Notes: generated by a model from the letters alone, not told the origin. DNA of 64,000 nt from an uncultured Eubacteriales bacterium (GCA_934446675.1 CAKSEL010000010.1:19861-83860); one strand, 5' to 3'; shown: positions 1 to 53,802, numbered from the stretch's first letter. Numbers and translations are program-made.

Positions 1-660
1 ATTCTCCAACTTTTCGACGGCGAAAAAGTTGCACTCTACTAAAGAGCGTAAACAAAAGCCGTTCGCGGCTCAGACGCCGCCGCGAAAGCGTGGCTACGGG
101 AGGATTTCACTCTAAAGAGTGTAAACGCCTACCGCAACTAACTACCCCTCCGAAATTTCAAAAACTCTCGTTTTGCACTTGTCCACATTGCTGTGTTGCG
201 AAATCGCCGCGCGACAGGCGCGCGGATATGGGGTTCTGTACGAAGTCAAACCATTTTGGAAAAAGTGTTATTTTTTATATTCTCCGACAGTCAACAGGAC
301 TCGCTTTTCTGCTCAGCTCGCTTACGCGAGATGACTTTTACAAATGTTAGTTTTTTGTTTCACGGGCGCGGAGTGAAAAATTCGGTTCTGTTTCGCCGGT
401 GCAAAGTTAAATACCGCATAAATTTCGGTTTCTGCGAAACAATTTCACTCACCAAAGTTCCCCATAGCACACAGTTTCCATAGTTTACTCACGCACCTGT
501 TTACATCTGAGTCAGCCGCCTGCCTTTTGGTGGCTGACGGTACAAGCTGGCGGCAGAGAGTATCCCGTAGCCTTTTCCTTATTTAAGGGCTTACTTGTTT
601 TTCTTTGCAGCTTTCTTTTTAAAAAGAAAGCGCGTATTCTTTTTCGGCGTAGTTGTATCT
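1..660 (-). repeat. Mosaic intergenic repeat, copy 1 (minus orientation, cut by window edge)
   Basis: The reverse complement aligns module-for-module with 4682-5348. Modules: A palindrome 610-631, hairpin B allele iii 511-538, hairpin C 317-330, hairpin D 207-225, hairpin E 62-86, F-variant hairpin 8-30. Its 5' end lies just after the stop (679-681) of the minus-strand M23 gene. Confidence 0.9.
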
Positions 661-4681: not shown

Positions 4682-4699
4682 GGGTACGCAAGAATACGC

Positions 4700-4721
4700 G
4701 CTTTCTTTTTAAAAAGAAAGC
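4700..4721 (+). other. Module A: 22-bp perfect palindrome GCTTTCTTTTTAAAAAGAAAGC
   Basis: Identical palindrome at 610-631, 17386-17407, 20539-20560, 22735-22756, 27601-27622, 31915-31936, 43055-43076, 46036-46057 and 52732-52753. It is always followed by TGCAAAGAAAAC. Confidence 0.95.
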
Positions 4722-4789
4722 TGCAAAGAAAACGGTAGCCCTTAATTTAGAAAAAGGCTATGGGATACTCCCTGCCGCCAGCTTGTTCC

Positions 4790-4818
4790 GTCCGCAGTCA
4801 AACAGCAGGACTGCGGAC
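4790..4818 (+). other. Module B hairpin (allele i): GTCCGCAGTC-N9-GACTGCGGAC
   Basis: Perfect 10-bp inverted repeat. The same position in other copies carries allele ii or iii (see findings). Confidence 0.9.
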
Positions 4819-4934
4819 TAAGATTATAAATAATGTGCCGAAGTAAACTATGGAAATTCAGTACAAAGGGTTGCTTTGGAAAGTGAAATTACTTTGCACC
4901 ACCCAAACAACAAACTAACATTTGTAAAAGTCAT

Positions 4935-4948
4935 CTCGCGTAAGCGAG
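4935..4948 (+). other. Module C hairpin: CTCGC-GTAA-GCGAG (GNRA-type loop)
   Basis: 5-bp stem with a GTAA loop, flanked by conserved AAAGTCAT and CTGGGCAGAAAA. Confidence 0.85.
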
Positions 4949-5040
4949 CTGGGCAGAAAAGTGAGTCCTGTTGACTGCGTGATTATATAGAAAATAACAC
5001 TTGCGCCGAATTGGGTTTAACTTCGTACAGAACCCCATAT

Positions 5041-5059
5041 CCGCGCGCCTGTCGCGCGG
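5041..5059 (+). other. Module D hairpin (allele a): CCGCGCG-CCTGT-CGCGCGG
   Basis: 7-bp all-GC stem between conserved CCCCAT and CGATTT. Confidence 0.85.
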
Positions 5060-5179
5060 CGATTTCGCGGCACAGTTTCAGGGACATTGCGAAACGAGGA
5101 TTTTTGAGCTTTCGGGGGCGTATTTGGTTTCGGTGCGCGTTTACACTCTTTAGAGTGAAATCCTCCACGTAGCCGCGCT

Positions 5180-5204
5180 TTCGCTGCGGCGTTTGAGCGG
5201 CGAA
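5180..5204 (+). other. Module E hairpin: TTCGCTGC-GGCGTTTGA-GCGGCGAA, followed by a T-rich tract
   Basis: 8-bp stem with one U.G pair. It is followed by AAAATCTTTTGTTT, which makes it the most terminator-like hairpin inside the element. Confidence 0.8.
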
Positions 5205-5231
5205 AATCTTTTGTTTACACTCTTTAGAGCG

Positions 5232-5256
5232 CGACTTTTTCGATTCCGAAAAGTCG
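5232..5256 (+). other. Module F hairpin: CGACTTTTTCG-ATTC-CGAAAAGTCG (start of a Z unit)
   Basis: The core CTTTTCGATTCCGAAAAG recurs about 19 times in the window (by eye), always followed by GAATAGAGTTGCACATGGAAGTGAAT..CCGTTTCCGCCC or a variant. Confidence 0.9.
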
Positions 5257-5348
5257 GTGTATAGACTTGCACATAGCAGTGAATTATCTCTTTCCGCCCA
5301 AAACAGGCAACAATCACTCCCCCAATGTAGAAGAAAGGAGCAGAACAC

Positions 5349-12230: not shown

Positions 12231-12257
12231 GAACAGGAGGCGGTGATTTTTGACCGG

Positions 12258-12338
12258 TTTGGGCGGGAAAAGATAATTCACTGCCACTTGCAATTCTATA
12301 CACCGACTTTTCGGAATCGAAAAAGTCGCGCTCTTTAG
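12258..12338 (-). repeat. Mosaic repeat copy 3a: isolated Z unit in reverse orientation
   Basis: The reverse complement reads GCGCGACTTTTTCGATTCCGAAAAGTCGGTGTATAGAATTGCAAGTGGCAGTGAATTATCTTTTCCCGCCCAAA. Hairpin F lies at 12304-12328. Confidence 0.9.
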
Positions 12339-12394
12339 TTTTATGTTTAGTTGGCGAAAGAGTGCAAGTCTGATAAAACTTAATACAAAAATAT

Positions 12395-12433
12395 ACTCTG
12401 TGCATTGTTCTACAACTTTGCACAGAGTTTTTC
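12395..12433 (+). terminator. Rho-independent terminator candidate (thrC), unique sequence
   Basis: ACTCTGTGCA (12395-12404) pairs with TGCACAGAGT (12419-12428): a perfect 10-bp stem with a 14-nt loop, followed by TTTTC. It lies between repeat fragments 3a and 3b. Confidence 0.7.
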
Positions 12434-12439
12434 TATACA

Positions 12440-12995
12440 TAAAAGTAGAATTTGATCCAAGTTTCTTGCCGATAGGCAAGCTGGGCAGAAAAACGTGTCC
12501 TGTTGACTGCGTAATAACTCGAAAAAATTACTTTTTTCACCTAAAATTAAGTTTACGCAGACCGCAGCGTGACATGGCGTAAGAGATAGAGCTGAGATAA
12601 ACAAATTTTACTTAGAAACCAACCCCATCGAGCAGTGCGGAGCATCTGCGAGCGAAAATTTAAAACTTCGGAGGTGCGGGAAAGTTTTACCGACGATAGT
12701 TTGATGTGTGGAAAGGAAGCCGCGCTTTCGCTGCGGCGTTTGAGCGGCGAAAATCTTTTGCGACTTTTTCGATTCCGAAAAGTCGGAAGAATAGAGTTGC
12801 ACATGGAAGTGAATTATTCTTTTTCGCCCAAAACAAGCGTCAGTTAGATAAACACAAAGTATCTTTTCTACTTTTCGATTCCGAAAAGTCGGAGAATAGA
12901 GCTGCACATGGCAGTGAATTAAAATTTCTCGCCCAAAATAAGCAACAGCCAGCCAAGCACAAAACATCTTTCCGCCCAACCTCCCTGCTCTCTTT
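12440..12995 (+). repeat. Mosaic repeat copy 3b: 5'-truncated copy (from module C onward)
   Basis: Hairpin C variant CTTGCCGATAGGCAAG at 12465-12480, then CTGGGCAGAAAA..CCTGTTGACTG, module V, D allele b, S3 spacer, E hairpin and two Z units. Confidence 0.9.
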
Positions 12996-15818: not shown

Positions 15819-15855
15819 ATGAATTGTGGGTTATTTTGGATTGAGTTATGCTTGG

Positions 15856-15990
15856 TTTGGGTGAAAAAAGATAATTCACTGCCACTTGCAAGTCTATTCT
15901 CCAACTTTTCGATTCCGAAAAGCGGAGATACAAAGCTGCACTTTGAAGAATATTTCCCATTTCCGCCCAAACAAGCAACAATCAACCAAA
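15856..15990. repeat. Mosaic repeat copy 4: two Z units head-to-head around one F hairpin
   Basis: TTTGGGTGAAAAAAGATAATTCACTGCCACTTGCAAGTCTATTCTCCAA, then CTTTTCGATTCCGAAAAG (15905-15922), then CGGAGATACAAAGCTGCACTTTGAAGAATATTTCCCATTTCCGCCCAAA. The left arm is a reversed Z and the right arm a forward Z. Confidence 0.85.
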
Positions 15991-15996
15991 ATTACC

Positions 15997-16156
15997 TTTT
16001 CCACAAATTAACATCGACTTTCCCACAAAATCCACAAAGAGTTATACACATCAAATCCACAGGAAATCAACAGGTTACGCATAAGGTTTTCCATAGGAAA
16101 AAAATTCTGGAATCAAGGCAGAATAAGCACTTCGGGAGTTGTCCACAGTTTCCACA
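15997..16156 (+). promoter_or_regulatory. Cluster of seven DnaA-box-like 9-mers, all in one orientation
   Basis: TTTTCCACA 15997, TTTCCCACA 16019, AAATCCACA 16028, TTATACACA 16042, AAATCCACA 16053, TTGTCCACA 16139, GTTTCCACA 16148. Each has 1-2 mismatches to TTATCCACA. Confidence 0.7.
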
Positions 16157-16180
16157 CCCTCTACTACTACTACTGCTTCC

Positions 16181-16212
16181 TATAAACAATATATATTATA
16201 TTATTTTTGTAT
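16181..16212. other. AT-rich tract (possible unwinding element) preceded by a (CTA)4 microrepeat
   Basis: TATAAACAATATATATTATATTATTTTTGTAT contains 2 G/C in 32 nt. CTACTACTACTAC lies at 16161-16173. Confidence 0.4.
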
Positions 16213-16245
16213 CGGATATAAAGAAAAAAGAAAGGATAGATAAAC

Positions 16246-17358: not shown

Positions 17359-18268
17359 AAACATTTTCGCCGAAGAAGAATACGCGCTTTCTTTTTAAAA
17401 AGAAAGCTGCAAAGAAAACGGGGAACGCGCTTTTCTGAAGAAAAGCTGAGCGCTCTAAAGAGTGTAAACAAAAGACTTTCGTAGCCCTTAAATAAAAATA
17501 AAGCTGTTGGCAACTCTGTGCCGCCAGCTTGTACCGTTCGCAGTCGAACAGCAGGACTGCGAACTCAAATCTAAGCAGGTGCCGAAGTAAACTATGGAAG
17601 TTGTGTACTATTGGTAACTTTGAAAAGTGAAACCCCTTTGCAACAGCGAAATAAAGTAAAAATTTCACTTCGCACCCGCGAAACAAAAACTAACATTTGT
17701 AAAAGTCATCTTGCCGTAGGCAAGCTGGGCAGAAAAATTTGTCCTGTTGACTGTTTGAATATATTAAGAGTAACATTCTTGCCAAAATAGTTTAACTTCG
17801 TACAGAACCCCATATCCGCGCGTCAGTCGCGCGGCGATTTTGCCGTAAGTTACACGGACGTACCGTAGTAGCAAGGCGGTCACGCTTGTGAGAATAATAG
17901 AGGTGAGAAAAGCTGTGTTTCGGGCAAAATCCTTCCGTCGGGGGATTGTCAAGGGGCGAGTAGTCCCTTGAACGGCTTTTCGACCACTTTTCGCCGCCGA
18001 AAAGTGCATATTTAAAGTTGCACTTTGAAGAATATAACCCGTTTCAGCTCAAAATAATCTGAAGTCAGCCACACGCAAGTGTAGTTCGCTTTCGCGGCGG
18101 CGTTTGAGCCGCGAAAATCTTTTGTCATTTATCCTCGCAGGGGACTTTTTCGATTCCGAAAAGTGAGAGAATAGAGTTGCAATTAGAAGTGAGTTATCCT
18201 TTTTAACCCAAAATAAGTAACACTCAGCCAAACAAAAAGTATTAAAAAATTTTGAAAAAAGAATATAG
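17359..18268 (+). repeat. Mosaic intergenic repeat, copy 5 (910 bp)
   Basis: A palindrome 17386-17407, a 60-bp insertion at 17421-17480, hairpin B allele ii 17536-17564, hairpin C allele ii 17710-17724, D allele a variant, S2-like spacer and two Z units. Confidence 0.93.
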
Positions 18269-20506: not shown

Positions 20507-21285
20507 GGACGCGAAGGGGAACGCGCTGAAGGTTACGCGCTTTCTTTTTAAAAAGAAAGCTGCAAAGAAAACGGTAGCCCCTAATTTAGAAAAGAATTGT
20601 TGGATACTCTCTGCCTCCGGCTTGTACCGTCAGCCACCAAAAGTCAGGCGGCTGACTTAAATGTGAACAATGGTGCCGAAGCAAGCTATGGAAATTCAGT
20701 ACAAATGGTTGCTTTGAAAAGTGAAATAATTACGCACCGACGAAACACAAAACTAATACTTGTAAAAGTCATCTTGCCGTAGGCAAGATGGGCAGAAAAA
20801 TGAGTCCTGTTGACTGTTGGAGAATATAAAAAATAACACTTTTTCCGAAATGGTTTGAGTTTGTACAAACCCCATTATCGAGCAGTGCGGAGCATCTGCG
20901 AGCGATTTTGCCGTAGGTTGTGTGGACGCACCGTAGTAACAAGTGGTCACTTTGGTAAAAGCGGTTGAGGGGTAGAAATCCGAGTTCAAGGCAAAATCCC
21001 CCACGTAGCCACGCTTTCGCGGCGGCGTTTGAGCCGCGAAAATCTTTTGTAACTTTTTCGATTCCGAAAAGTTAGAGAATAGAGTTGCACATGGCAGTGA
21101 ATAACCCGTTTCCGCTCAAACAGGCAAAAATCAGCCAAACAAAAAACATCTTTCAGCTTTTCTACTTAGAAAAGCGTCAGTATAAAGTCGCACTTTGAAA
21201 AAAGTAACCCGTTTCCGCCCAAAAAAAAGTAAGTAAAATTTAAATATTTACCCAAAATTTAAGAAGAAGAAAAGGAGAATTTTCC
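20507..21285 (+). repeat. Mosaic intergenic repeat, copy 6 (779 bp)
   Basis: A palindrome 20539-20560, hairpin B allele iii 20629-20656, C allele ii, D allele b, S2, E hairpin 21016-21040, F hairpins at 21051-21073 and 21156-21175. Confidence 0.93.
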
Positions 21286-22695: not shown

Positions 22696-23565
22696 AGAAT
22701 ACGAAGGGGTACGAAGGGGTACGCAAGAATACGCGCTTTCTTTTTAAAAAGAAAGCTGCAAAGAAAACGGTAGCCCTTAAATAAGAAAAAAGCTGTGGGA
22801 TATTCTCTGCCGCCAGCTTGTTCCGTCCGCAGTCGAACAGCAGGACTGCGGACTAAGATGTAAACAGGTGCATGAGTAAACTATGGAAACTGTGTGCTAA
22901 GGGTAGCTTTGGAAAGTGAAATTGCTCCGCACTATCTAAACATAAAACTAAAATTCAGCAAAGTCATCTCGCGTAAGCGAGCTGGGCAGAAAAATAAGTC
23001 CTGTTGACTGTGTAATAACAGTAAAAATTAACATTTGCGCACCCAAAATAAAGTTTACGCAGACCGCGGCGTGACATGACGTAAAACTTGGCATTATGTC
23101 AACCAATCCATGTTCAGATACCAACCCCATCGAGCAGTGCGGAGCATCTGCGAGCGAAGATTGCAAACTTCGGAGGCGCGGAAAAAGCTTTACCGACGAT
23201 AGTTAGATGTGTGGAGAAGAAGCCGCGCTTTCGCTGCGGCGTTTGAGCGGCGAAAATCTTTTGTCATTTATCCTCGCAGGGGACTTTTTCGATTCCGAAA
23301 AGTGAGAGAATAGAGTTGCAGGTGGAAGTGGATAATCCGTTTTCGCCAAAAATAAGTGAAAATCAGCCACACGCAAGTGTAGTTCGCTTTCGCTGCGGCG
23401 TTTGAGCGGCGAAAATCTTTTGTTTACACTCTTTAGAGCGCCCGTCTTTTCGATTCCGAAAAGCGGAGATATAGGGTTGCACATGGAAGTGAATAATCAA
23501 TGTGGCACAAAAATATTCATTCCTCCTAAACTAATCAAAAATCACCCCAAAAAGGAATAAAAAAT
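22696..23565 (+). repeat. Mosaic intergenic repeat, copy 7 (870 bp)
   Basis: Four tandem TACG decamers (22697-22736), A palindrome 22735-22756, hairpin B allele i 22825-22853, C, V, D allele b, S3 and two E+F+Z units. Confidence 0.93.
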
Positions 23566-27569: not shown

Positions 27570-28282
27570 TTTTTGTCCCGAAGGGGTACGAGGAATACGC
27601 GCTTTCTTTTTAAAAAGAAAGCTGCAAAGAAAACGGTAGCCCTTAAATAAGAATAGAATTGTGGGATACTCCCTGCCGCCAGCTTGTTCCGTCCGCAGTC
27701 AAACAGCAGGACTGCGGACTCAGATATAAATAAGGTGCCGAAGTAAACTATGGAAATTGTGTACGGACGATAACTTTGAAAAGTGAAATTGCTCCGCACC
27801 AACAAAACAAAAAACTAACATCTGTAAAAGTCATCTCGCGCAAGCGAGCTGGGCAGAAAAACGAGTCCTGTTGACTGTGAAATAGCTCAAAAAAATTACT
27901 TTTTTGCACCCAAAATAAAGTTTACGCAGACCGCAGCGTGACATGGCATAAAAATCCGGAATTATGTCAACTAAACCGTGTTTAGATACCAACCCCATCG
28001 AGCAGTGCGGAGCATCTGCGAGCGATGATAGAGAATTTCGGAGGTGCGCGGAGGCTTTACCGACAATAGTTTGATGTGTGGAAACATAGCCACGCTTTCG
28101 CGGCGGCGTTTGAGCCGCGAAAATCTTTTGTTTACACTCTTTAGAGCGCGACTTTTTCGATTCCGAAAAGTCGGAGAATAAAGCTGCAAGTGGCAGTGAA
28201 TAATCCGTTTCCTCCTAAACTTAAGAAACAATCAGCCCAAATAATCAGTACCCTGAAAAAAGTAGAGAAAGGAAGATACCCG
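27570..28282 (+). repeat. Mosaic intergenic repeat, copy 8 (713 bp)
   Basis: A palindrome 27601-27622, hairpin B allele i 27691-27719, hairpin C with GCAA loop 27835-27848, V, D allele b, S3 and one E+F+Z unit. It ends GAAAGGAAGATACCCG just before TTG 28283. Confidence 0.93.
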
Positions 28283-29552: not shown

Positions 29553-31895
29553 ATGTTTTCAAAGAATTTCTACGGTGCGGGTAAGGAATACTGCACCTAC
29601 GACAAGCACGTAAACGCACCGTATCTGCGCCGCACATTTGAACTGGATAATATTCCGGAAACCGCGTCGCTCAAGATAACTTCTTCGGGTTTTTATGAAC
29701 TGTACATAAACGGAGAAAAGATAACAAAGTGTCCGCTGTCGCCGTATATCACAAATCCCGACAGCGTGCTGGTGTATGATACTTATGACCTTAAACCGTA
29801 TCTTAAAAGCGGAGAAAACTGCATAGGCATTATTCTCGGAAACGGACTTGTAAACTGCCTCGGCGGATTTATCTGGGACTTTGAGAAAGCGCCTTACAGG
29901 GCGGCACCGTCGGCAGCGTTTTACTTTGAGGCAAAGAACGGCGATAAGACCGTGCTCAGCTTTGAGGCGGACGAGAATATAAAAACTCACCCGTCGCCGA
30001 TACTCTTTGACGATCTCCGCAGCGGCGTTATATATGACGCGCGCCTTGAAATTCCCGACTGGTGTAAGCCGGGCTTTGACGATAAAGACTGGACGCCTGC
30101 AATAAAGGCGGATACTCTCAGAGGCGAGCCTGTCGATTTCGATACCGATAAGCTATCTTTCTCGGAAATACTCGACGCCGTAAGCTTTGAGCAAGGTAAG
30201 GAGCAGGAGGTTCAGATACCGAGCTGCAAACGTCCCATGCCGCCGTCTGTACCCGTTATGGAAAACGATAAACAGGGCTATGTGTACGATTTCGGCAAGA
30301 ACAGCGCCGGTATTCCGATTTTTAAGATCAAAGGAAAACCCGGACAGATGATAGCTCTTCAGTTTTCGGAATATTTCCGCGGCGGAGTTTATTCGTATGA
30401 GAATATAAACAGATTTTACCCCGACGGATATACCCAGAGAGATTATTATATCTGCCGCGGAGACGGCAGCGAGGAAACTTTCATGCCGCCGTTTACATAT
30501 CACGGAGCGCAGTACTGCACCGTTATCGGCGCGGAGAAAGAACAGCTCGATATAGATACGGTCAAATTCTGCGTTATACATTCGGATTTTGTTTCAAGAG
30601 GAGATTTTGACTGCTCGGACAGAATTGCGTCTGAACTGCAGAAAGCCGTAAGAAGAAGCGACCTTGCAAACTTCGTATATTTCCCGACAGATTGTCCGCA
30701 CCGCGAAAAGAACGGCTGGACGGGAGACGCGTCAATGTCTGCGGAACAGTTCACACTCAATTTCGGCGTTGAAAAGAGCTTAAAATTCTGGATGCGCCTT
30801 ATACGTCAGTCGCAGAGAATTGACGGCGCGATAGCCGGAATAGTGCCGACGTCGGGCTGGGGATATGCCTGGGGCAACGGTCCTATCTGGGACTCGGTAA
30901 TCGTCGAGCTGCCATATCAGACGTATAAATACCGCGGAGATATTTCGATGTTTAAGGAAAACGCGGATATGGTGCTGCGTTATCTTCATTACGCCGCGAA
31001 AAAGCGTAATAAGAGAGGGCTTTGCGCATTCGGACTTACCGACTGGGTTCAGCCGGGATATGACAGCGCAAATCCGACAACTCCTCAGGTCGTTACCGAT
31101 ACGTTTATGCTTGTAAATATCTGCCGGAAAGCCGGAATTATGTTCGCCGCGGCAGGACTTAAAGCCGAGAGCGACTATGCGTATGCGCTTATGAACGAGT
31201 ACAGAAACGCCGCAAGGGAATATCTTGTCGATCTCAATACAATGACCGCACTCGGAGAAACGCAGTGCGCACAGAGCGCCGCAATATACTATGAGATATT
31301 CGATAAGGCGGAAATTCCCGAGGCAGGGCGCAGACTTGTGGAAATCGTGCATAGAGCAAATGACGTTTTTGACTGCGGAATGCTCGGTGTAAGGCTTGTG
31401 TTTAATGTGCTTGCGGATCTCGGATATGCCGATCTTGCGTATAAGATGATCACGCGTTCCGATGTGCGCGGATATGGTATATGGATTGAAAAGTTCGGTA
31501 TCTCCACACTTCCCGAATCGTTCCATGATACTATCGACGGATTTACCACCTCTCTTGATCATCATTTTCTCGGTGATATTTCTGATTTCTTTATTACAAA
31601 AATTGCAGGTATTCGTGTAAATCCTAAACTTGATGACGCAAATTATGTCGAAATCAGACCGAATTTTGTTAAAACGCTTGACAGCGCCTGCGCACACTAC
31701 GATACCGTTTCCGGTAAAGTCTCGGTTTCCTGGAAACGCTCTCCCGACGGTACTGTCTCAGTTTCCGTCGATAAACCCGATGCGGTCAGAGTAAATCTCT
31801 TCCTCCCTAAAGGCTTTGTCTGCACTACTCCCGGTTTCTATCGCGGCAAATCAGCTCTCCTTAACTTCTCCGGCGTAACAGACGCAAAGGAGTAA
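29553..31895 (+). CDS. Alpha-L-rhamnosidase (GH78)
   Basis: YFPTDCPHREKNGWTGDA catalytic-domain motif. 780 aa. Confidence 0.88.
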   Translation: MFSKNFYGAGKEYCTYDKHVNAPYLRRTFELDNIPETASLKITSSGFYELYINGEKITKCPLSPYITNPDSVLVYDTYDLKPYLKSGENCIGIILGNGLVNCLGGFIWDFEKAPYRAAPSAAFYFEAKNGDKTVLSFEADENIKTHPSPILFDDLRSGVIYDARLEIPDWCKPGFDDKDWTPAIKADTLRGEPVDFDTDKLSFSEILDAVSFEQGKEQEVQIPSCKRPMPPSVPVMENDKQGYVYDFGKNSAGIPIFKIKGKPGQMIALQFSEYFRGGVYSYENINRFYPDGYTQRDYYICRGDGSEETFMPPFTYHGAQYCTVIGAEKEQLDIDTVKFCVIHSDFVSRGDFDCSDRIASELQKAVRRSDLANFVYFPTDCPHREKNGWTGDASMSAEQFTLNFGVEKSLKFWMRLIRQSQRIDGAIAGIVPTSGWGYAWGNGPIWDSVIVELPYQTYKYRGDISMFKENADMVLRYLHYAAKKRNKRGLCAFGLTDWVQPGYDSANPTTPQVVTDTFMLVNICRKAGIMFAAAGLKAESDYAYALMNEYRNAAREYLVDLNTMTALGETQCAQSAAIYYEIFDKAEIPEAGRRLVEIVHRANDVFDCGMLGVRLVFNVLADLGYADLAYKMITRSDVRGYGIWIEKFGISTLPESFHDTIDGFTTSLDHHFLGDISDFFITKIAGIRVNPKLDDANYVEIRPNFVKTLDSACAHYDTVSGKVSVSWKRSPDGTVSVSVDKPDAVRVNLFLPKGFVCTTPGFYRGKSALLNFSGVTDAKE

Positions 31896-32730
31896 GGAGT
31901 ACGCAGGAGAACGCGCTTTCTTTTTAAAAAGAAAGCTGCAAAGAAAACAATAGCCCCTAATTTAGAAAAGAATTGTGGGATACTCTCTGCCGCCAGCTTG
32001 TACCGTCCGCAGTCAAACAGCAGGACTGCGGACTAAGATGTAAACAGGTGCGTGAGTAAACTATGGAAATTGTGTACTAATGGCAGCTTTGGAAAGTGAA
32101 ATAATTACGCACAAACGAAATAAATCCCAAATTTCACTTTGCACCCACGAAACAAAAAACTAAAATTCAGCAAAGTCATCTCGCGTAAGCGAGCTGGGCA
32201 GAAAAACGAGCCCTGTTGACTGCAAAATAACTTGAGAAAATTACTTTTTTGCACTCGAAATAAAGTTTACGCAGACCGTAACGTGACATGGCATAAAAGT
32301 TTGGCATTATGTCAACTAAACCGTGTTTAGATACCAACCCCATCGAGCAGTGCGGAGCATCTGCGAGCGATTTCGCCGTAGGTTACGTGGACGCACCGTA
32401 GTAACAAGTGGTCGTTTTGGTAAGGGTTTTGGAGGGGAAGAATGTGCGTTTAGGGCGAAATCCTCCACGTAGCCACGCTTTCGCGGCGGCGTTTGAGCCG
32501 CGAAAATCTTTTGTTACCTTTTCGATTCCGAAAAGTAAGCATATAAAGTCGCACTTTGAAGAAAGTAATCCGTTTCCGCCCAAACCAAGCAAAAATAAGC
32601 CAAACGTAAAACATCTTTTCACTTTTCGATTCCGAAAAGAGGAGATATAAGGTTGCAATTGGAAGTGAATGTCCCGCTTCAGCCCAAAATAATCAAAAAA
32701 AGAAAATAGAAGAAGAAAAGAGGAGTCCCC
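31896..32730 (+). repeat. Mosaic intergenic repeat, copy 9 (835 bp)
   Basis: A palindrome 31915-31936, hairpin B allele i 32005-32033, C, V, D allele b, S2, E and two Z units. It ends AAGAGGAGTCCCC just before GTG 32731. Confidence 0.93.
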
Positions 32731-33756
32731 GTGAAGTTCTCGGTAGTAGGAATCCAGCACCCGCATATATACGGAATGACAAGTGAACTTGTCGCACATG
32801 GCGCAGAACTCGTCTCGGCGTATGATAGCGATAAGATAGCACTTGACGCGTTCGTAAAAAAGTACCCGGGCGTAAAGCCGGTAAGATGCGAAGAAGAAAT
32901 ACTTGAAGATAAAAATGTTCAGCTCGTGGCAGGCGCCGCCGTTACGTCCGAAAGAGCCGATATAGGTATACGCACAATGAACGCAGGTAAAGATTATTTT
33001 ACCGATAAAGGTCCGTTTACGTCGTTTGAACAGCTTGAAAGAGTAAAGCAGACAGTAAAGCAGACCGGAAAAAAGTATATGGTTTGTTATAGCGAAAGAC
33101 TTCAGAATTCAAGCGCTGAAATGGCAGGAATGATGATAAAGCGCGGAGATATAGGAAAAGTCGTTCAGGTCGTAAGTATGGGACCGCACAGACTTAACGC
33201 AAAGTCAAGACCGGAGTGGTTCTGGCAAAAAGAAAAGTTCGGCGGTATACTCGATGATATATGCTCGCATCAGTTTGAACAGTTTTTGTATTTCACAGGC
33301 GCAGATAAGGCAAGCGTGGTTTCGGCAAGAGTCGAAAACTTCGCACACCCCGAGTACCCCGAATTTGAAGATTTCGGTGAAGCAAGCCTTGTCGCCGATA
33401 ACGGGGCGTCGGGATACGTAAAGGTCGATTGGTTCACACCCGACGGACTTGATACGTGGGGCGACGGCAGAGCTTTTGTAATAGGCACGGACGGATATAT
33501 CGAACTCAGAAAAACCATAGATATATGCGGAAGACCGGGTGCAAATCACCTGTTTGTGACTACAAATAAGCAAAAAACAACGTATGTTGACGCAAATTCT
33601 TTCGGACACCCGTTCTTTGACGCGTTTATAAAGGACTGCCAAGAACGTACCGAAAACGCAATGACTCAGGAACACGTCTGGGAGAGCGCAAGACTTACGC
33701 TTGAAGCTCAGCAAAAAGCCGATGAATTCAGAAAAAAACTAAAAAATATGCTTTAA
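32731..33756 (+). CDS. Gfo/Idh/MocA-family oxidoreductase
   Basis: 341 aa. Family-level resemblance by eye (N-terminal Rossmann-like half, C-terminal alpha/beta domain). GTG start. Confidence 0.8.
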   Translation: MKFSVVGIQHPHIYGMTSELVAHGAELVSAYDSDKIALDAFVKKYPGVKPVRCEEEILEDKNVQLVAGAAVTSERADIGIRTMNAGKDYFTDKGPFTSFEQLERVKQTVKQTGKKYMVCYSERLQNSSAEMAGMMIKRGDIGKVVQVVSMGPHRLNAKSRPEWFWQKEKFGGILDDICSHQFEQFLYFTGADKASVVSARVENFAHPEYPEFEDFGEASLVADNGASGYVKVDWFTPDGLDTWGDGRAFVIGTDGYIELRKTIDICGRPGANHLFVTTNKQKTTYVDANSFGHPFFDAFIKDCQERTENAMTQEHVWESARLTLEAQQKADEFRKKLKNML

Positions 33757-37241: not shown

Positions 37242-37640
37242 AGGGAGTTCCTCTTTTCTTCTTCTTTTCTTTGATTTATGTTGGGCTTGTTTTCTTTTGT
37301 TTTGGGCGGAAATTGGTTAGTCACTGCCATGTGCAAGCGTATACCTCCGCTTTTCGGAATCGAAAAGACGGGCAAAAGATTTTCGCGGCTCAAACGCCGC
37401 CGCGAAAGCGTGGCTTTATTTTCCACACAAAATTGTATCGTCGGAAAAACATCTTCGCGCCCCCGAAGTCTGCAATCTTCGCTCGCAGACGCTCCGCGCT
37501 GCTCGATATGGGGTTCTGTACAAAGCTAAACTATTTCGGGGAAAGTGTTATTTTTTATATACTCATGCAGTCAACAGGACACACTTTTACGACCAGCTCG
37601 CTGTCGCGAGATGACTACGGCTGAATTTTACTTTTGTGTT
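37242..37640 (-). repeat. Mosaic repeat copy 10a: 5'-truncated copy in minus orientation, 3' end at the polA start
   Basis: On the reverse strand: hairpin C (GACA loop) 37597-37610, D allele b, S3, E hairpin, F hairpin 37350-37367, Z core, then SD and the polA GTG. Confidence 0.9.
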
Positions 37641-37680
37641 TGGTAAACTAAACTTGCAAGTTCGCTCTAAAACGTAATAT

Positions 37681-38156
37681 ACCGCACCAAATTGCACTCA
37701 CAAAGACGTGACACGGCAGAAAAACAGTATTATGTCAACCAAGTCATTGCTAAGAAACCAACCCCATCGAGCAGTGCGAAGCATCTGCGAGCGATTTTGC
37801 CGTAGGTTATGTGGACGCACCGTAGTAACAAGTGGTCACTTTGGAAAAAGCGTTTGAGGGGTAAAAAGTCATGTTTAGGGCAAAATCCTCCACGTAGCCA
37901 CGCTTTCGCGGCGGCGTTTGAGCCGCGAACGGCTTTTGTTTACGCTCTTTAGAGTGCAACTTTTTCGCCGTCGAAAAGTTGGAGAATAGAGCTGCACATG
38001 GAAGTGGATTATCTTTTTAGCCCCAAATAAGCAACACTCAGCCAACCGCAGAACATCTTTCAGCTTTTCGATTCCGAAAAGCGTCGGTATAAAGTTGCAC
38101 TTTGAAGAAAATTCCCCGTTTCCGCCCAAATCGACCTCAAAATATCTTCAATCTTC
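37681..38156 (+). repeat. Mosaic repeat copy 10b: 5'-truncated copy in plus orientation
   Basis: Starts in module V, then D allele b, S2, E, F-variant hairpin 37957-37981, Z, and a second F+Z. It ends at the stop codon (38157-38159) of the minus-strand HD gene. Confidence 0.9.
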
Positions 38157-42419: not shown

Positions 42420-43022
42420 ATGGGATTCGGACTGTTATTTCTCGGATTTCTGCTGTTTCTGTCGTTTAAAATATTTCCCGTCGGAGTAATCGGTGCGGCG
42501 CTTATGTATGCCGGACTTTCAAAGCTGTGTAAGTCCGCACCGTACTTTTCAAAGGTCAGAATACCGTGCGCCGTGTATTTTGTTTACAGCGTGCTGTTCG
42601 CCGTGCTCTGGACGTTTAATATTACAGGCGCGCTCGATGTTCTCGGCGACGGCGCAAAATTGCTCTGGATCGTTGACGACGCAGTTTATACGGTTATATT
42701 CTGCATACTCTGCGATTTTCTCTTTAAAGCGCTAAAACGTATTTGTGAACAGGTCGGCTTTGATAAGGGCGTGAAAAAGTATAGACTTTGCCTTGCGTTC
42801 CTTGAGGTTTATGCTCTCGGCTCCGCAGTTAAGTTTGTGTGCTATCCTCTCGGATATTCCGCTTATGTTACCGCTCCTCTGCTTGTTGCCGAACTGCTTA
42901 CCGTTGTCTCCGCCGCTGCTTGGCTCTATTCCTGCTATATGATGATCGCTACTCAGGAAATTATCGACGACGAAACCGAAAAAATCCGCAAGTACGACAA
43001 GTTACACTCAAAAAAACGGTAG
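42420..43022 (+). CDS. Multi-pass membrane protein, unknown function
   Basis: 200 aa with ~5 hydrophobic helices. The N-terminal motif resembles that of the 44617 gene. Confidence 0.7.
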   Translation: MGFGLLFLGFLLFLSFKIFPVGVIGAALMYAGLSKLCKSAPYFSKVRIPCAVYFVYSVLFAVLWTFNITGALDVLGDGAKLLWIVDDAVYTVIFCILCDFLFKALKRICEQVGFDKGVKKYRLCLAFLEVYALGSAVKFVCYPLGYSAYVTAPLLVAELLTVVSAAAWLYSCYMMIATQEIIDDETEKIRKYDKLHSKKR

Positions 43023-43399
43023 GGGTACGAAGGAGTACGCGCCGAAGAATACGCGCTTTCTTTTTAAAAAGAAAGCTGCAAAGAAAACAATAGCCCTTAA
43101 TTTAGAAAAAGGCTACGGGATACTCTGTGCCGCCAGCTTGTGCCGTCAGCCACCAAAAGTCGGGCGGCTGACTCAAATCTAAGCAGGTGCGTGAGTAAAC
43201 TATGGAAATTATGTGCTGACGGTGACTTTGGAAAGTGAAACTCTTTTGTCATTTATCCTCGCAGAGGACTTTTTCGATTCCGAAAAGTGAGTGTAGAAAG
43301 CTGCAAGCAGAAGTGAATTTCCCGTTTCCGCCAAAAATTAAGATATATTTCTCAAATTTTTAAGATACATTTTTCCCAAAAAAGAAAGGAAGAGTCCCG
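43023..43399 (+). repeat. Mosaic intergenic repeat, copy 11 (377 bp, internal deletion)
   Basis: A palindrome 43055-43076, hairpin B allele iii 43145-43172, and the 5' half of P3, joined directly to the linker TCATTTATCCTCGCAGAGG plus one F+Z unit. It ends GAAAGGAAGAGTCCCG just before ATG 43400. Confidence 0.92.
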
Positions 43400-44616: not shown

Positions 44617-46017
44617 ATGAAATCCGGACTTGTTTTGGTGTTTTTCGGACTTGTTTTTCTGATAAATCCGAACTTTAATATGTTCGACATATTGCCGGAC
44701 TTTATAGGATTTGCGCTTGTGTGCGCAGGACTTGCAAAATACGCGCTGATTGACGAAAATCTGTCGAGTGCAAAGAAATGTTCGATGTACTGCGCGTTTC
44801 TGTCTGCCGCAAAGCTTGTTTTTTCGCTGTGGACGAATGCCGGGCATACAGATTATCTTCTGCCGTTCGGGTTTGCCTTTGCGGTGCTTGAAATAATCTT
44901 TATGACGGCGTTTTTCAGAAACCTCTGCACGGGATTTGACTATATGGCTCTGAGAGCGTCGGAAGAAGGCGCAAGAACAAAGCTGTCGAACCTGTTTGCA
45001 ATGTCGGCGATATATACGTTCGGCACGCGCATACTCGATTTTGTACCGCAGATATTTTCGCTCGCCGTGCAGAACGAGGAGCTTGATTTAAGCTATAATG
45101 CGCATAGAAAAATGCCGCTTTCGGCGGTAAAGCCGTATGTTATGCTTGTCTGCATGGCGGCAAGCCTTGCACTCGGAGTGCTTTTGGTGATTGTCGCGTC
45201 GGGAGCATTGAAAAAACTGCGGAAAAGTGAGAAATTTATTGGTTTTGCGCAGCAGAAATATGCAAACGACGTCGAAAATGACCGTGAAAGATACGTAAGC
45301 CTTGTAATGCCGGGCGTTTTTACGCTCTGCGTGATTGCGTCGGTGTTCCTGTACGATTTTGAGATAGGCGGATTGAATTTGCTGCCGACGGTTCTGGCGC
45401 TGCCGTTTTTTGCCGCAGCTTTTGCGAGAATGAAAAAGGTCGATGCAAATATAAAAACTCCGTATGTGACATATATTGCTGCGGCTGTATTCTGTGCCGC
45501 ACAGTATGTGCTTATGTACGCGGTAAATGTCGGCGTGGGCGAGCTTTATGCGGAAAGTGCCGTTACTTACGGCGCGGCGTTAAGACTGTCGTCGGTCGGC
45601 GGTACGGTATTGACGGTTGCCGTTTGCGTGCTTTGCGCGGTGTTTACGGCGCTCGGTGCGGTTAAAACACTTAACGCGCTCGGTACTGTCTGCAAGGATA
45701 ACCGCAGAACGGCGGCTCTCGGACGTATTTTTCTCTGCAAGATTATGGTCTGCGCGGTCTGCTTTGCCGGATTTGTGAGCAATTCGCTTAGAATAGCCGT
45801 TCTGTATCTCGGCAACAATGCCGCAGTGCGTGAATTTCTCCTTGTACGCGGTAATATTAAGTCCGAGCCGCAGTATCTTTCATATCTTTCAAACCGCAGC
45901 GTCGCTCTCTTTCAGCGCCTCGATGCTCTCAGTGAATTTGTCGGTATCGCTTTCTTTGTCCTTGCTTTTTTCACTGTTCTCAACATCGCCGCCGCTCAAA
46001 ACAAATCCGAAGGATAG
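44617..46017 (+). CDS. Multi-pass membrane protein, unknown function
   Basis: 466 aa with ~10 hydrophobic helices. Confidence 0.7.
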   Translation: MKSGLVLVFFGLVFLINPNFNMFDILPDFIGFALVCAGLAKYALIDENLSSAKKCSMYCAFLSAAKLVFSLWTNAGHTDYLLPFGFAFAVLEIIFMTAFFRNLCTGFDYMALRASEEGARTKLSNLFAMSAIYTFGTRILDFVPQIFSLAVQNEELDLSYNAHRKMPLSAVKPYVMLVCMAASLALGVLLVIVASGALKKLRKSEKFIGFAQQKYANDVENDRERYVSLVMPGVFTLCVIASVFLYDFEIGGLNLLPTVLALPFFAAAFARMKKVDANIKTPYVTYIAAAVFCAAQYVLMYAVNVGVGELYAESAVTYGAALRLSSVGGTVLTVAVCVLCAVFTALGAVKTLNALGTVCKDNRRTAALGRIFLCKIMVCAVCFAGFVSNSLRIAVLYLGNNAAVREFLLVRGNIKSEPQYLSYLSNRSVALFQRLDALSEFVGIAFFVLAFFTVLNIAAAQNKSEG

Positions 46018-46820
46018 GAGTACGCAAGAATACGCGCTTTCTTTTTAAAAAGAAAGCTGCAAAGAAAACAGTAGCCCTTAATTTAGAAAAGAATTGCGGA
46101 ATACTCTCTGCCGCCAGCTTGTACCGTTCGCAGTCGAACAGCAGGACTGCGAACTCAGATGTGAGCAGGTGCTGAAGTAAACTATGGAAATTTAGTACAA
46201 AGGGCAACTTTGGAAAGTGATATTACTTCGCACCACCCAAACATAAAACTAAAATTCAGCAAAGTCATCTCGCGTAAGCGAGTTGGGCGGAAAAACGAGT
46301 CCTGTTGACTGCATAATAACGCATAAGAATTGCATATTTGAGCCTTAAATATAGTTTACGCAGACCGCAACGTGACATGGCATAAAAGTTGAACTGTGTT
46401 AACCAATTTGAGCGTAGACACCAGCCCCATCGAGCAGTGCGGAGCATCTGCGAGCGATTTTGCCGTAGGTTACGTGGACGCACCGTAGTAACAAGTGGTC
46501 ACTTTAGAAAAATCGTTTGAGGGGTAGAAAGTCATGTTCAGGGCAAAATCCTCCACGTAGCCACGCTTTCGCTGCGGCGTTTGAGCGGCGAAAATCTTTT
46601 GCGACTTTTTCGATTCCGAAAAGTCGGTGAATAGACTTGCAAGTGACAGTGGATAATCCTTTTCCGCCTAAAATAATCAAAATTTGATTAAACATAAAAC
46701 ATCTTTCAGCTTTTCTCCGTAGAAAAGCGTCAGTATAGGGTTGCACATGGAAGTGGATTATCCGTTTCCGCCCAAACCAAGAAACAATCAGCCAAGAAAA
46801 AAGAAAGGAAGTCTCTCACC
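46018..46820 (+). repeat. Mosaic intergenic repeat, copy 12 (803 bp)
   Basis: A palindrome 46036-46057, hairpin B allele ii 46126-46154, C, V, D allele b, S2, E (U.G allele) and two Z units. It ends GAAAGGAAGTCTCTCACC just before GTG 46821. Confidence 0.93.
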
Positions 46821-47030
46821 GTGGAACTTAAAGCCTTCGGCGTAGGCGATACGCTGAATATGAAAAAACCGCACGCGTGTGATTCAAAATCAAAAAAGAT
46901 GCTCGTGCTCATGGCAGGCAGTGACGTAAAAGTGCGCTGTGAGGGCTGCGGACGTGAGATGATCCTGCCGAGAGTTAAACTCGAAAGAAGTATAAAAAGC
47001 GTTACCCGAAAGGAAGACATGAATGTTTGA
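46821..47030 (+). CDS. DUF951-family small protein
   Basis: 69 aa. [37 protein letters not shown] matches the DUF951 pattern by eye. GTG start. Confidence 0.75.
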
Positions 47031-50421: not shown

Positions 50422-51292
50422 AGTACGCAGGAATACGCGCTTTATAGGGGTACGCGCTTTTCTGAAGAAAAGCTGAGCGCTCTAAAGAGTGTAAACAAAA
50501 GACTTTCGTAGCCCTTAAATAAGAAAAGAATTGTGGGATACTCCCTGCCGCCAGCTTGTACCGTTCGCAGTCAAACAGCAGGACTGCGAACTCAGATGTA
50601 AACAGGTGCGTGAGTAAACTATGGAAATTCAGTACAAAGGGTAGCTTTTGAAAGTGAAATTACTCCGCACCTACGAAACAACAAACTAACATTTGTAAAA
50701 GTCATCTTGCCGTAGGCAAGCTGGTCGGAAAAGTTAGTCCTGTTGACTGTGAAATAACAGAAAAAGTTAACACTTGCGCACCTCAAATAAAGTTTACGCA
50801 GACCGCAACGTGACATGGCGTAAAACTTGGCATTATGTCAACCAACTTGTGTGTAGATGCCAGCCCCATCCGCGCGCCTGTCGCGCGGCGATTTTGCCGT
50901 AAGCTACACGGACGTACCATAGTAGCAAGGCGGTCGCATTTGTAAGGATAATAAAGGTGAAAAAAGCCATGTTCAGGGCAAAATCCTCCACGTAGCCACG
51001 CTTTCGCGGCGGCGTTTGAGCCGCGAAAATCTTTTGCCTTTTATCCTCGCAGGGGACTTTTTCGATTCCGAAAAGAGGGGGAATAGGGTTGCACATGGCA
51101 GTGAATTATCTTTTCTCGCCAAAATAAGCAACAGCTAGCCAAACACCAAACATCTTTCAGCTTTTCTCCGTAGAAAAGCGTCAGTACAAAGTTGCACTTT
51201 GAAGAATATTTCCCGTTTCCGCCCAAATAGGCAACAATCAACCAATCAAAAACTAAAAAATTATATAGAATCTCAGAAAGAAGATGTAAAAT
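50422..51292 (+). repeat. Mosaic intergenic repeat, copy 13 (871 bp)
   Basis: TACG decamers. The A palindrome is replaced by the insertion variant (hairpin 50456-50473, inverted 27-mer 50475-50501). Then hairpin B allele ii 50563-50591, C allele ii, V, D allele a, S2, E and two Z units. Confidence 0.93.
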
Positions 51293-52702: not shown

Positions 52703-53802
52703 GGAATAGATAGGGATTACGAGGGATACGCGCTTTCTTTTTAAAAAGAAAGCTGCAAAGAAAACGGTAGTCCTTAATTTAGAAAAGAATTGTGGGATAC
52801 TCTCTGCCGCCAGCTTGTACCGTCCGCAGTCGAACAGCAGGACTGCGGACTAAGATAAAAACAGGTGCCAAAGCAAGCTATGGAAATTGTGTGCTGAAGG
52901 TGGCTTTGGTGAGTGAAACCGTTTCGCAACAATGAAATAAAGTAAAAATTTCACTTTGCGCCGACGAAACAGAACCGAATTTTCGCTCCGCACCGACGGA
53001 AACAATAAACTAAAATTCAGCAAAGTCATCTCGCGTAAGCGAGCTGGGTAGAAAAATGAGTCCTGTTGACTGCGAAATAACTTAAAAAAATTACTTTTTC
53101 GCACCTAAAATAAAGTTTACGCAGACCGCAGCGTGACATGGTACAAGAACTCGGCATTATGTCGACCAATTTGTGTTTAGAAACCAGCCCCATCCGCGCG
53201 CCTGTCGCGCGGCGATTTCGCGGCACAGTTTCAGGGACAGTGCGAAATGTGAGTTTTTGAAATTTCGGAGGCGTAAATGGTTTTGGTGCGCGTTTACACT
53301 CTTTAGAGTGAAATCCTCCACGTAGCCACGCTTTCGCGGCGGCGATTGAGCCGCGAACGGCTTTTGTTTACGCTCTTTAGAGTGCAACTTTTTCGCCGTC
53401 GAAAAGTTGGAGAATAGAGTTTCAAGTGGAAGTGAGTAATCCGTTCCCGCCAAAAACAGGTGAAAATCAGCCATACGCAAGTTTAGTTCGCTTTCGCGGC
53501 GGCGTTTGAGCCGCGAAAATCTTTTGTCATTTATCCTCGCAGGGGACTTTTTCGATTCCGAAAAGTGAGGAGAATAGACTTGCAAGTGGAAGTGAATTTC
53601 CCGTTTCCACCCAAAATAAGCAATACTCAGCCAAACAAAAAGTATCTTTTCGCTTTTCGATTCCGAAAAGTCGGTGAATAGAGTTGCACATGGAAGTGGA
53701 TTATCATTTTCCGCCCCAAAATAAGCAACACTCAGCCAAACCCGCAAACCTGTCCTGTGCAAAGAGAAAAAAGATATTAAAAGTTAGAAAGGAAGATCCC
53801 CG
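52703..53802 (+). repeat. Mosaic intergenic repeat, copy 14 (1100 bp, longest)
   Basis: A palindrome 52732-52753, hairpin B allele i 52822-52850, extended P3, C, V, D allele a, S1, then three Z units (F hairpins 53385-53409, 53546-53566, 53653-53670) with two E hairpins. It ends GAAAGGAAGATCCCCG just before GTG 53803. Confidence 0.93.

Follow-up and report, generated by a model that had tools for sequence, protein, structure and literature searches.

What decides where a repeat begins and ends when it fills the space between two genes? This question was raised by a 64,000-nucleotide (nt) stretch of DNA, one strand, from an uncultured Eubacteriales bacterium (GCA_934446675.1 CAKSEL010000010.1:19861-83860), referred to here as the window and numbered from its first letter. 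The window has a GC content of 45.8% and carries ordinary housekeeping and sugar-utilisation genes (guaB, thrC, dnaN, gyrA/parC-like, dxr, polA, secA, prfA, galK and others); no tRNAs were found in it. Many of its gene gaps measure 0.4–1.1 kb, and analysis by self-BLAST and repeat families showed that each is occupied by one modular repeat family, whose merged self-BLAST segments amount to 16 pieces and ~10.9 kb, or 17% of the window. An earlier reading of the sequence (the original prediction) held that the copies run exactly from the upstream stop codon to the downstream Shine–Dalgarno (SD) sequence and start codon and follow gene orientation, either because they act as polar stop-to-start linkers or because gene conversion homogenises them up to the boundaries of the open reading frames (ORFs). 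The reading that we favour, at about even confidence, is that the boundaries are set by selection: a polar, co-transcribed, high-turnover and lineage-specific repeat would have replaced all dispensable spacer DNA.

From 5′ to 3′, a copy consists of an array of TACG units, a 22-nt A/T-rich palindrome, a hairpin-bearing core and one to six 3′ units, with a total length of 377–1100 nt. The array is hypervariable and comprises two to more than six units of 10–15 nt each (for example, GAAGGGGTAC, GCAAGAATAC, GCGCCGAAGAATAC and GCGCTTTAGGGGTAC); all units terminate in (T/A)ACGC, GGAG or GGGG makes most of them SD-like, and start codons are absent from all of them. The palindrome, GCTTTCTTTTTAAAAAGAAAGC, is perfect. 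Together with its 3′ flank it forms a 34-mer (TGCAAAGAAAAC) that 10 window copies contain with no more than a single mismatch; over the 46 nt from AAGAATACGC to AAAACGG, nine window copies are 89–100% identical, while the mean identity of paralogous cores is 64%. A different hairpin replaces the palindrome in the copy at 50422. The conserved blocks of the core are TGCCGCCAGCTTGT, a 10-bp hairpin in which three pairs co-vary between sub-families, AAACTATGGAAA, a CTCGC-GTAA-GCGAG hairpin and CCTGTTGACTG, a motif identical in all eleven aligned window copies. The 3′ units (~104–160 nt) contain a CTTTTCGATTCCGAAAAG hairpin, GCAC(T/A)T(T/G)G(A/C)AG and CCGTTTCCGCCCAAA. The focal copy, which lies downstream of a rhamnosidase gene, is laid out as follows.

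29553–31895, plus strand: rhamnosidase gene; its stop codon TAA (31893–31895) directly adjoins the repeat.
31896–31914, plus strand: 5′ array of two TACG units, GGAGTACGCA and GGAGAACGC, SD-like; number and type of units vary among copies and strains.
31915–31936, plus strand: perfect 22-nt palindrome GCTTTCTTTTTAAAAAGAAAGC.
32005–32033, plus strand: hairpin GTCCGCAGTC-9 nt-GACTGCGGAC with three co-varying pairs.
32180–32222, plus strand: core block with the CTCGC-GTAA-GCGAG hairpin, GGGC..GCCC and CCTGTTGACTG.
32515–32602, plus strand: first 3′ unit (~104-nt period) with the CTTTTCGATTCCGAAAAG hairpin, GCACTTTGAAG and CCGTTTCCGCCCAAA; repeat family D5.
32619–32706, plus strand: second 3′ unit; repeat family D5.
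32707–32733, plus strand: 3′ junction with TAG (32707–32709), a purine run, GAGGAG (32720–32725), TCCCC (32726–32730) and GTG (32731), the start of a GFO/MocA oxidoreductase gene.

For a larger site set, the window was combined with three related assemblies, which represent two or three further strains of one species-level lineage, giving 94 hairpin-bearing copies at 46 distinct sites; the copies from other assemblies were fetched by exact palindrome match and hence are not independent evidence for the invariance of the palindrome. A co-oriented long ORF ended just upstream at 42 of the 46 hairpin-bearing sites (p = 5e-9), and the array started 0–3 nt past the stop codon at ~35 of them. In the segment set used for counting orientation, the preceding gene was co-oriented for 44 of 50 segments of at least 250 nt (p = 3e-8). 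The association on the 5′ side exceeds chance. The copies left of the putative replication origin (oriC), at 4682 and 12432, still follow their plus-strand genes, so that orientation goes with transcription and not with replication. On either strand, and to either side of the putative oriC, the copies are polar and linked to the 3′ end of the gene before them. The observations that had led to the original prediction held at this level: its twelve quoted junction strings were all present in the window at the positions given, the ten complete plus-strand copies lie between plus-strand genes, the copies beside minus-strand genes (1–649 and 37272–37644) are flipped accordingly, and the one counter-example, aimed at the 3′ end of the HD gene, was found at 37706–38131. 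In general, minus-strand copies come after minus-strand genes.

The stop codon of the preceding gene is itself often element-derived, as the skewed stop-codon usage before copies shows. Genes before a copy ended in TAA (18), TAG (12) or TGA (2), compared with 80, 5 and 64 for other genes of the same sequences. Counted per site, TAG preceded 13 of 45 copies (~29%) and ended 5 of 149 other genes (3%; p = 4e-6), and the corresponding values for TGA were 5/45 (~11%) and 64/149 (43%; p = 7e-5). The longer internal 5′ units read GCGCTT(T)A(A/G)GGRGTACGC, so that TAA or TAG followed by GGRGTACG belongs to the unit. An alternative 5′ sub-module, (A/T)TACATT(C/T)TCGCC, was seen at seven sites and follows TAG at six of them, and its variant at the dnaN site of the window, AAACATTTTCGCC, is likewise preceded by TAG. 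Some ORFs read on into the array for a few codons, until they reach a stop carried by one of the units; the ORF in L023 is five codons longer than that in L082, and L036 and L022 behave in the same way. The last codon of the M18 gene is at the same position as in six relatives. The leftovers between gene and copy are functional, namely a perfect parS site after the M23 gene and, at two other sites, a hairpin with a T-run terminator. The minimum distance from stop codon to palindrome is ~17–19 nt.

On the 3′ side, the exactness claimed for the copies held only in part. GAAAGGA(A/G) is the general SD of the species, since it also precedes the element-free genes at 10752, 47023 and 61738. A C-rich spacer directly before the start codon was found at 5 of 12 element-preceded starts and 0 of 33 others in the window, and at 9 of 28 versus 1 of 164 in the larger set (p = 8e-8), although it marks only about one third of tandem gaps. 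Non-ATG starts were frequent after copies in the window (8/12 versus 3/25, p = 0.001), but their enrichment in the larger set was weak (10/28 versus 30/164, p = 0.045). Thus, of the SD, C-rich spacer and mostly non-ATG start that had been proposed as the repeat-derived 3′ end, and that might have been the general ribosome-binding context of the species, the SD is indeed generic and the spacer is not; the observation that element-free genes lack a TCCC-type spacer stood in the window. The junctions resembled an internal segment of the 3′ unit, the alpha-unit segment CTTTGAAGAAnnTTCCCCGTTT (Mann-Whitney p = 3e-5), most clearly at TCTTTGAAGAAAGGAGAGAACCCG-TTG in L036. On the basis of this resemblance, the CCCG|TT of the unit may have supplied the G in GTG starts or the TT in TTG starts.

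A repeat-derived ribosome-binding site (RBS), spacer and start would therefore be a feature of the subset of copies whose junctions resemble CTTTGAAGAAnnTTCCCCGTTT. Where two genes converge, copies terminate in a plain unit that has neither SD nor C-rich spacer, and they occupy the gap as far as the other gene's stop codon; several further copies are followed by 100–440 nt of unique DNA, such as a clean TTGACG-17-TATAAT promoter before 13084 and oriC before dnaN. The RBS is thus not an intrinsic end of every copy. In most copies TAG or TAA lies 0–45 nt before the start (9 of 12 element-preceded starts versus 2 of 25). The TAG codons situated 0–24 nt ahead of most downstream starts (9/12 versus 2/25; 5328–5330, 18266–18268, 28263–28265, 32707–32709, 51266–51268, 53785–53787 and loci in metagenome-assembled genomes) are odd in that TAG is otherwise rare; a unit remnant (AATAGAG), a duplicated target and a stop for stray translation are all candidates for their origin.

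The same gaps are short in relatives. Six relatives with 73–82% amino acid (aa) identity share the order secA, a 200-aa gene, a thioesterase gene, a 250-aa gene, a 465-aa gene, DUF951, prfA, sua5, coaE, SLT, M18 and galK. Their spacers measure 2–63 nt and their genes start with ATG, whereas the same gaps measure 377–1100 nt in the window, with GTG starts at DUF951 and galK. The sole exception is L032, a relative with 78% aa identity, in which a 496-nt insert (L032:5894-6389) occupies the gap between the 465-aa gene and DUF951 and is followed by a GTG start. This insert contains internal 54-nt direct repeats and an A/T-rich palindrome, GCTTTTTGAAAAAAGC, that begins 8 nt past the stop codon. It looked similar to the family by eye and was rejected as a member because BLAST gave no significant similarity. 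Since six relatives keep the gene order with short spacers, the family appears to have entered ancestral, tightly packed operons in this lineage only.

The repeat family is limited to one species-level lineage of gut Clostridia. An exact search with a 29-mer of the hairpin among 185,579 GTDB species representatives matched only ‘uncultured Clostridiales bacterium UMGS1387’. Metagenome contigs carrying the 22-mer in family context came mostly from two samples, and their genes were ~95–96% identical to those of the window; 13 further metagenome matches to the 22-mer were unrelated low-complexity DNA.

Within this lineage, the element and its junctions change rapidly from strain to strain (~95% nt identity). 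Every comparable site was occupied in all strains, and no recent insertion was caught among them. At the same site, different strains differed in the number and type of array units, in the presence of the 5′ sub-module and, at one site, in having TAG or TAA as the stop codon. Insertions and deletions of 150–900 nt separated strains, one of them a deletion between two quasi-palindromic unit hairpins. Where alignable, orthologous copies were 72–94% identical, compared with 87–92% at the third codon positions of neighbouring genes, so that some of them (72–81%) were more diverged than those positions. The most diverged orthologous pairs suggest ectopic exchange.

The other copies in the window, among them partial copies that the original prediction had not listed (12243–12334, minus strand; 12432–12975, plus strand; and 15838–15992), are as follows.

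1–649, minus strand: copy after the M23 peptidase gene; begins beyond the parS site that follows the stop codon.
4682–5320, plus strand: copy after guaB.
12243–12334, minus strand, and 12432–12975, plus strand: head-to-head pair after thrC, made up of an antisense unit fragment and a sense core with units, then a unique promoter-like stretch before 13084.
15838–15992: remnant in which an antisense unit is fused to a sense unit at the unit hairpin; strain S1 is ~670 nt longer here.
17359–18250, plus strand: copy after dnaN, with 5′ sub-module AAACATTTTCGCC and two hairpin types.
20507–21260, plus strand: copy after the gyrA/parC-like gene.
22696–23540, plus strand: copy before dxr.
27570–28260, plus strand: copy before an aldehyde dehydrogenase gene (TTG start at 28283).
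37272–37644, minus strand: partial copy (3′ part) upstream of polA.
37706–38131, plus strand: partial copy aimed at the 3′ end of the HD/YfbR gene, the counter-example; ends in a plain unit without SD.
43021–43343, plus strand: short copy before a thioesterase gene.
46013–46802, plus strand: copy before DUF951 (GTG start at 46821).
50422–51260, plus strand: copy before the gene for an M18 aminopeptidase; its 5′ hairpin is a variant, and the final ~22 nt ahead of the ATG are similar to the ancestral spacer seen in the relatives.
52703–53780, plus strand: longest copy, before galK (GTG start at 53803).

Head-to-head pairs, in which an antisense 3′-unit fragment faces a sense core with units and no 5′ hairpin is present, were seen in the window at 12243–12975, 15838–15992 and 37272–38131 and elsewhere in L007, L011, L030 and L098. 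The genes preceding them have TGA stops. Relative to L098, the window has a ~670-nt deletion that joins two unit hairpins.

The repeat is non-coding. Its sense strand has stops in every frame, with a longest stop-free run of 49–81 codons in copies of 377–1100 nt. On the antisense strand of copies including 31896–32730, stop-free runs of 97–208 codons extend across the 3′ units; coding potential was rejected and the runs were judged compositional, because frames shift between the 104-nt units, which are not multiples of three, and because no Pfam match was found. Neither a consistent promoter nor a consistent terminator was found inside the element, and TTGACT within CCTGTTGACTG is not accompanied by a conserved −10 box. 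The 5′ palindrome was rejected as an intrinsic terminator: its stem is A/U-rich and followed by UGCAAAGAAAAC, and a terminator scan flagged it weakly and on the antisense strand. Long-range pairings predicted in single copies (CAGCAGGACT with AGTCCTGTTG, and GAGTAAACT with AGTTTAC) received no support from variant sub-families. The 5′ arm of the palindrome, GCTTTCTTTTT, is anti-SD-like and complementary to a purine leader, AAAAAGAAAGG, located just 5′ of several downstream starts (46037–46046 with 46798–46807, and the leaders of 43400, L016 and L025); the 3′ arm has nearly the same sequence as this leader.

How, then, would such boundaries arise? In the mechanism that we propose, the ancestral spacer would have lost every dispensable base through slippage of units, deletions inside copies and, probably, ectopic exchange among them. 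The 5′ limit of a copy would then be a stop codon (often supplied by a 5′ unit), a parS site or a terminator, and its 3′ limit would be an RBS with start codon, a promoter, oriC or the stop at which a convergent gene ends. The RBS-proximal bases (the purine run, the C-rich spacer and possibly the first one or two bases of GTG or TTG) would come from the 3′ unit in about one third of tandem gaps. Copies are probably co-transcribed with the flanking genes, and sense orientation alone would be tolerated. We favour limits set by selection because this reading accounts for the exceptions to a strictly targeted linker. Several points weigh against it. Co-transcription is deduced from operon context and from the lack of a consistent promoter or terminator. 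Erosion of the spacer is historical, and no intermediate with a partly eroded spacer was seen among strains (~95% nt identity) or relatives (at most ~82% aa identity for the nearest). The near-invariance of the palindrome region, against ~64% identity elsewhere, implies a sequence-specific function that the model leaves unnamed. The strong concentration of 5′ ends at 0–3 nt from the stop codon could also reflect targeted insertion. The SD of galK, AGAAAGGAA, is present in relatives too, so that a change in the 8-nt spacer and the start codon would have sufficed there, and the C-rich spacer need not come from a unit. Finally, some of the interior differences between strains may be chimeras that short-read assembly produced at the near-invariant 46-nt hairpin; this limit also applies to the predicted homogenisation up to ORF boundaries, for which the same-site differences (units, sub-module, TAG/TAA) and the 72–81% versus 87–92% identities otherwise speak.

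Targeted insertion would make the repeat a portable intercistronic linker, similar to MIRU, with defined ends (a stop at the 5′ end, and SD, spacer and start at the 3′ end) and placed precisely between stop and start, so that both neighbours stay expressed and are perhaps translationally coupled across a folded insert. We regard this as rather unlikely, even though much of the junction evidence is what it predicts: the arrays that begin 0–3 nt past the stop, the enrichment of TAG and depletion of TGA, the specificity of the C-rich spacer for element-preceded genes, the homology of the junction to the alpha-unit and the NTGA overlaps at 18269, 28283, 32731 and 53803. In addition, the M18 stop and the galK start are at positions unchanged relative to the six relatives, with everything between them replaced and ATG changed to GTG, and MIRU, described in PMC12548453 and PMC3184786 as inserting at start codons and as having coupled ORFs, provides a precedent. 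However, the original idea of a polar stop-to-start linker survives in its polarity, in the element-derived stop and, for a subset of copies, in the 3′ junction; against it, copies in convergent gaps have no SD end, the SD motif is generic, and copies sit beyond parS or terminators instead of at the stop, or are followed by a promoter, oriC or other unique DNA. No ORF spans a copy, the small terminal ORFs occur in some copies only and in differing, inconsistent frames, and coupling ORFs overlapping the stop and start of the neighbours were tested and not supported. Terminal inverted repeats linking both ends were absent from the three copies examined. TAR is found at the 5′ end, but as a target-site duplication it matched at the two ends in only 5 of 10 copies, which is the level of chance. 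A helix closing the 5′ and 3′ ends, evaluated from the duplex energies of array and C-rich spacer in cognate and non-cognate combinations, was not statistically supported (p = 0.03 with the hairpin arm and 0.09 without it), and the sites compared are all shared among strains. A related and similarly doubtful proposal is a self-contained intercistronic cassette that carries a 5′ stop of its own; one sub-family would also bring the RBS, the spacer and the first bases of the start codon. A mechanism guided by translation signals or by the mRNA (an RNA intermediate, for instance, or copy-choice at SD-like microhomology) would set the cassette exactly into the interval from stop to start. If true, the cassette would be a kilobase-scale, RNA-structured counterpart of MIRU in Firmicutes that invades operons without polar damage.

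The repeat might instead be kept because it benefits the host as an RNA module in the 3′ or 5′ untranslated region, either by shielding the mRNA on its upstream or downstream side against exonucleases (in the manner of REP or of a ribosome-binding stabiliser of the STAB-SD type) or by insulating or processing polycistronic transcripts. The conserved hairpins with compensatory changes, the near-invariant motifs, the strict sense orientation, a stop-to-palindrome minimum just beyond the ribosome footprint and the SD-like units without start codon all fit such a role. We nevertheless find it improbable, given that orthologous copies evolve at or above the rate of synonymous sites and lose hundreds of nt between strains, that six relatives lack the element at the same gaps and that the neighbouring genes have no common function. 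Moreover, in a test of the strand by G-U pairs, sense and antisense consensus folds were equally good and hairpin counts ambiguous, so that either strand may be the folded one. Very unlikely, in our judgement, is an element acting at the DNA level, whose palindrome and units bind a protein (either a recombinase or transposase encoded by an autonomous partner not seen here, or a protein of the nucleoid or origin region) and whose orientation rule is a by-product. The perfect palindrome is indeed kept at the level of sequence and not by covariation, about one third of the copies of strain S1 lie in this 64-kb origin-proximal region, and many 3′ units match the DnaA box at 8 of 9 positions; but orientation goes with transcription whichever side of the putative oriC a copy lies on, and no partner gene was present in ~0.7 Mb of flanking sequence. 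A DnaA-box role of the 3′ units was rejected, as exact boxes do not occur in copies and one-mismatch boxes are enriched window-wide, mostly in genes.

Comparison with known systems identified no family to which the repeat belongs. Rfam gave nothing at the gathering score and, at E values up to 10, no match recurring between copies; the known large bacterial non-coding RNAs (GOLLD, ROOL, OLE, raiA and HEARO) had no covariance-model match, the only weak match, to RAGATH-32 (18.6 bits, gathering score 41.8; E = 0.13), was not seen again in other copies, and ORF-less group I or group II introns were rejected on the same Rfam thresholds. Phage and plasmid collections contained no match. No description of the family was found in the papers searched: a search for UMGS1387 was empty, and reviews of bacterial small repeats contained nothing like it. 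Derivatives of the IS200/IS605 type (PATE, REP-like elements and omega-RNA carriers) were considered in view of the hairpins and rejected, because orientation follows the genes on both sides of the putative oriC and Rfam gave no match to HEARO or IS605-type RNAs. An integron cassette array (attC) was rejected because the genes on either side of the copies are housekeeping genes whose order is shared by six relatives lacking the repeat.

The closest analogue appears to be MIRU, although no match to a known family was found. According to the summaries of Supply et al. (1997) in PMC12548453 and PMC3184786, MIRU are intergenic interspersed repeats of 40–100 bp within operons, which have the orientation of the flanking genes and ends overlapping stop and start codons; their unit copy number varies by strain, an ORF couples translation, and they are read as insertions with minimal harm to expression. 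As in that description, the window repeat lies between operon genes (2–63 nt spacers in relatives), is co-oriented (44/50 segments) and varies in unit number. Unlike MIRU as summarised there, it is 377–1100 nt long, has stops in all sense frames and no consistent coupling ORF, is tandem only in its 5′ 10–15-nt and 3′ ~104-nt units, also occurs in convergent gaps, has no sequence relation to MIRU and belongs to another phylum. The BOX element of Streptococcus pneumoniae (boxA-(boxB)n-boxC) is intergenic, transcribed and non-autonomous, with a variable internal module and predicted RNA structure (PMC3184786). It resembles the window repeat as a modular intergenic repeat of a Firmicute with a variable number of internal modules, but, compared by description and with no curated-family similarity, it is much shorter and is not reported to abut stops or to be strictly co-oriented. 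The REP/BIME of enterobacteria are extragenic palindromes between operon genes or after the last gene, are co-transcribed and can stabilise upstream mRNA (PMC3184786); REP are 21–65 nt, GC-rich and RAYT-linked, whereas the palindrome of the window repeat is A/T-rich and one module of a kilobase-scale element. Miniature inverted-repeat transposable elements (MITEs), such as Correia/NEMIS and RUP, are abundant non-autonomous intergenic repeats that can be co-transcribed and alter the expression of neighbours (PMC3184786). The association of the window repeat with TAA/TAG recalls TA-targeting MITEs; however, it has neither terminal inverted repeats nor a consistent target-site duplication, is mostly above MITE size and is strictly polar. 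No autonomous partner with a transposase was seen in ~0.7 Mb of loci.

The window also contains a probable replication origin at 15990–16245, directly upstream of dnaN, with DnaA-box-like 9-mers (TTTTCCACA, TTTCCCACA, AAATCCACA, TTATACACA, TTGTCCACA and GTTTCCACA), a DnaA-trio-like CTACTACTACTACT run and an AT-rich stretch; there is no adjacent dnaA gene, and the GC skew is compatible. Two perfect parS sites (TGTTTCACGTGAAACA) lie at 662–677, after the M23 peptidase stop and between gene and repeat, and at 2809–2824, inside the M23 gene. Copies are concentrated near the origin: ~12–13 of the roughly 38 hairpin-bearing copies of the strain in sample ERZ835980 (L035-L099) map to the 64-kb region, although the hit contigs total ~1.2 Mb. 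At 12386–12428, in the gap between thrC and DAGK, the uup RNA motif (RF03060) scored 25.5 bits, below its gathering score of 36.8.

Many short-read contigs break or end at the 46-nt near-invariant segment, which disrupts short-read assembly of this species, and the 5′ arrays are ready variable-number tandem repeat markers for typing its strains. A kilobase-scale modular repeat that makes up ~17% of the origin-proximal region is an unusual load for a compact genome, as boundary-respecting repeats are known only as short elements (REP, BOX and MIRU). The repeat splits ancestral, tightly packed operons and alters stop-codon choice in a genome where TAG is otherwise nearly absent. It is a candidate for a new mechanism of insertion or turnover, and, as a natural experiment, it bears on the polarity, coupling and mRNA stability of operons that have to accommodate long inserts without translation.

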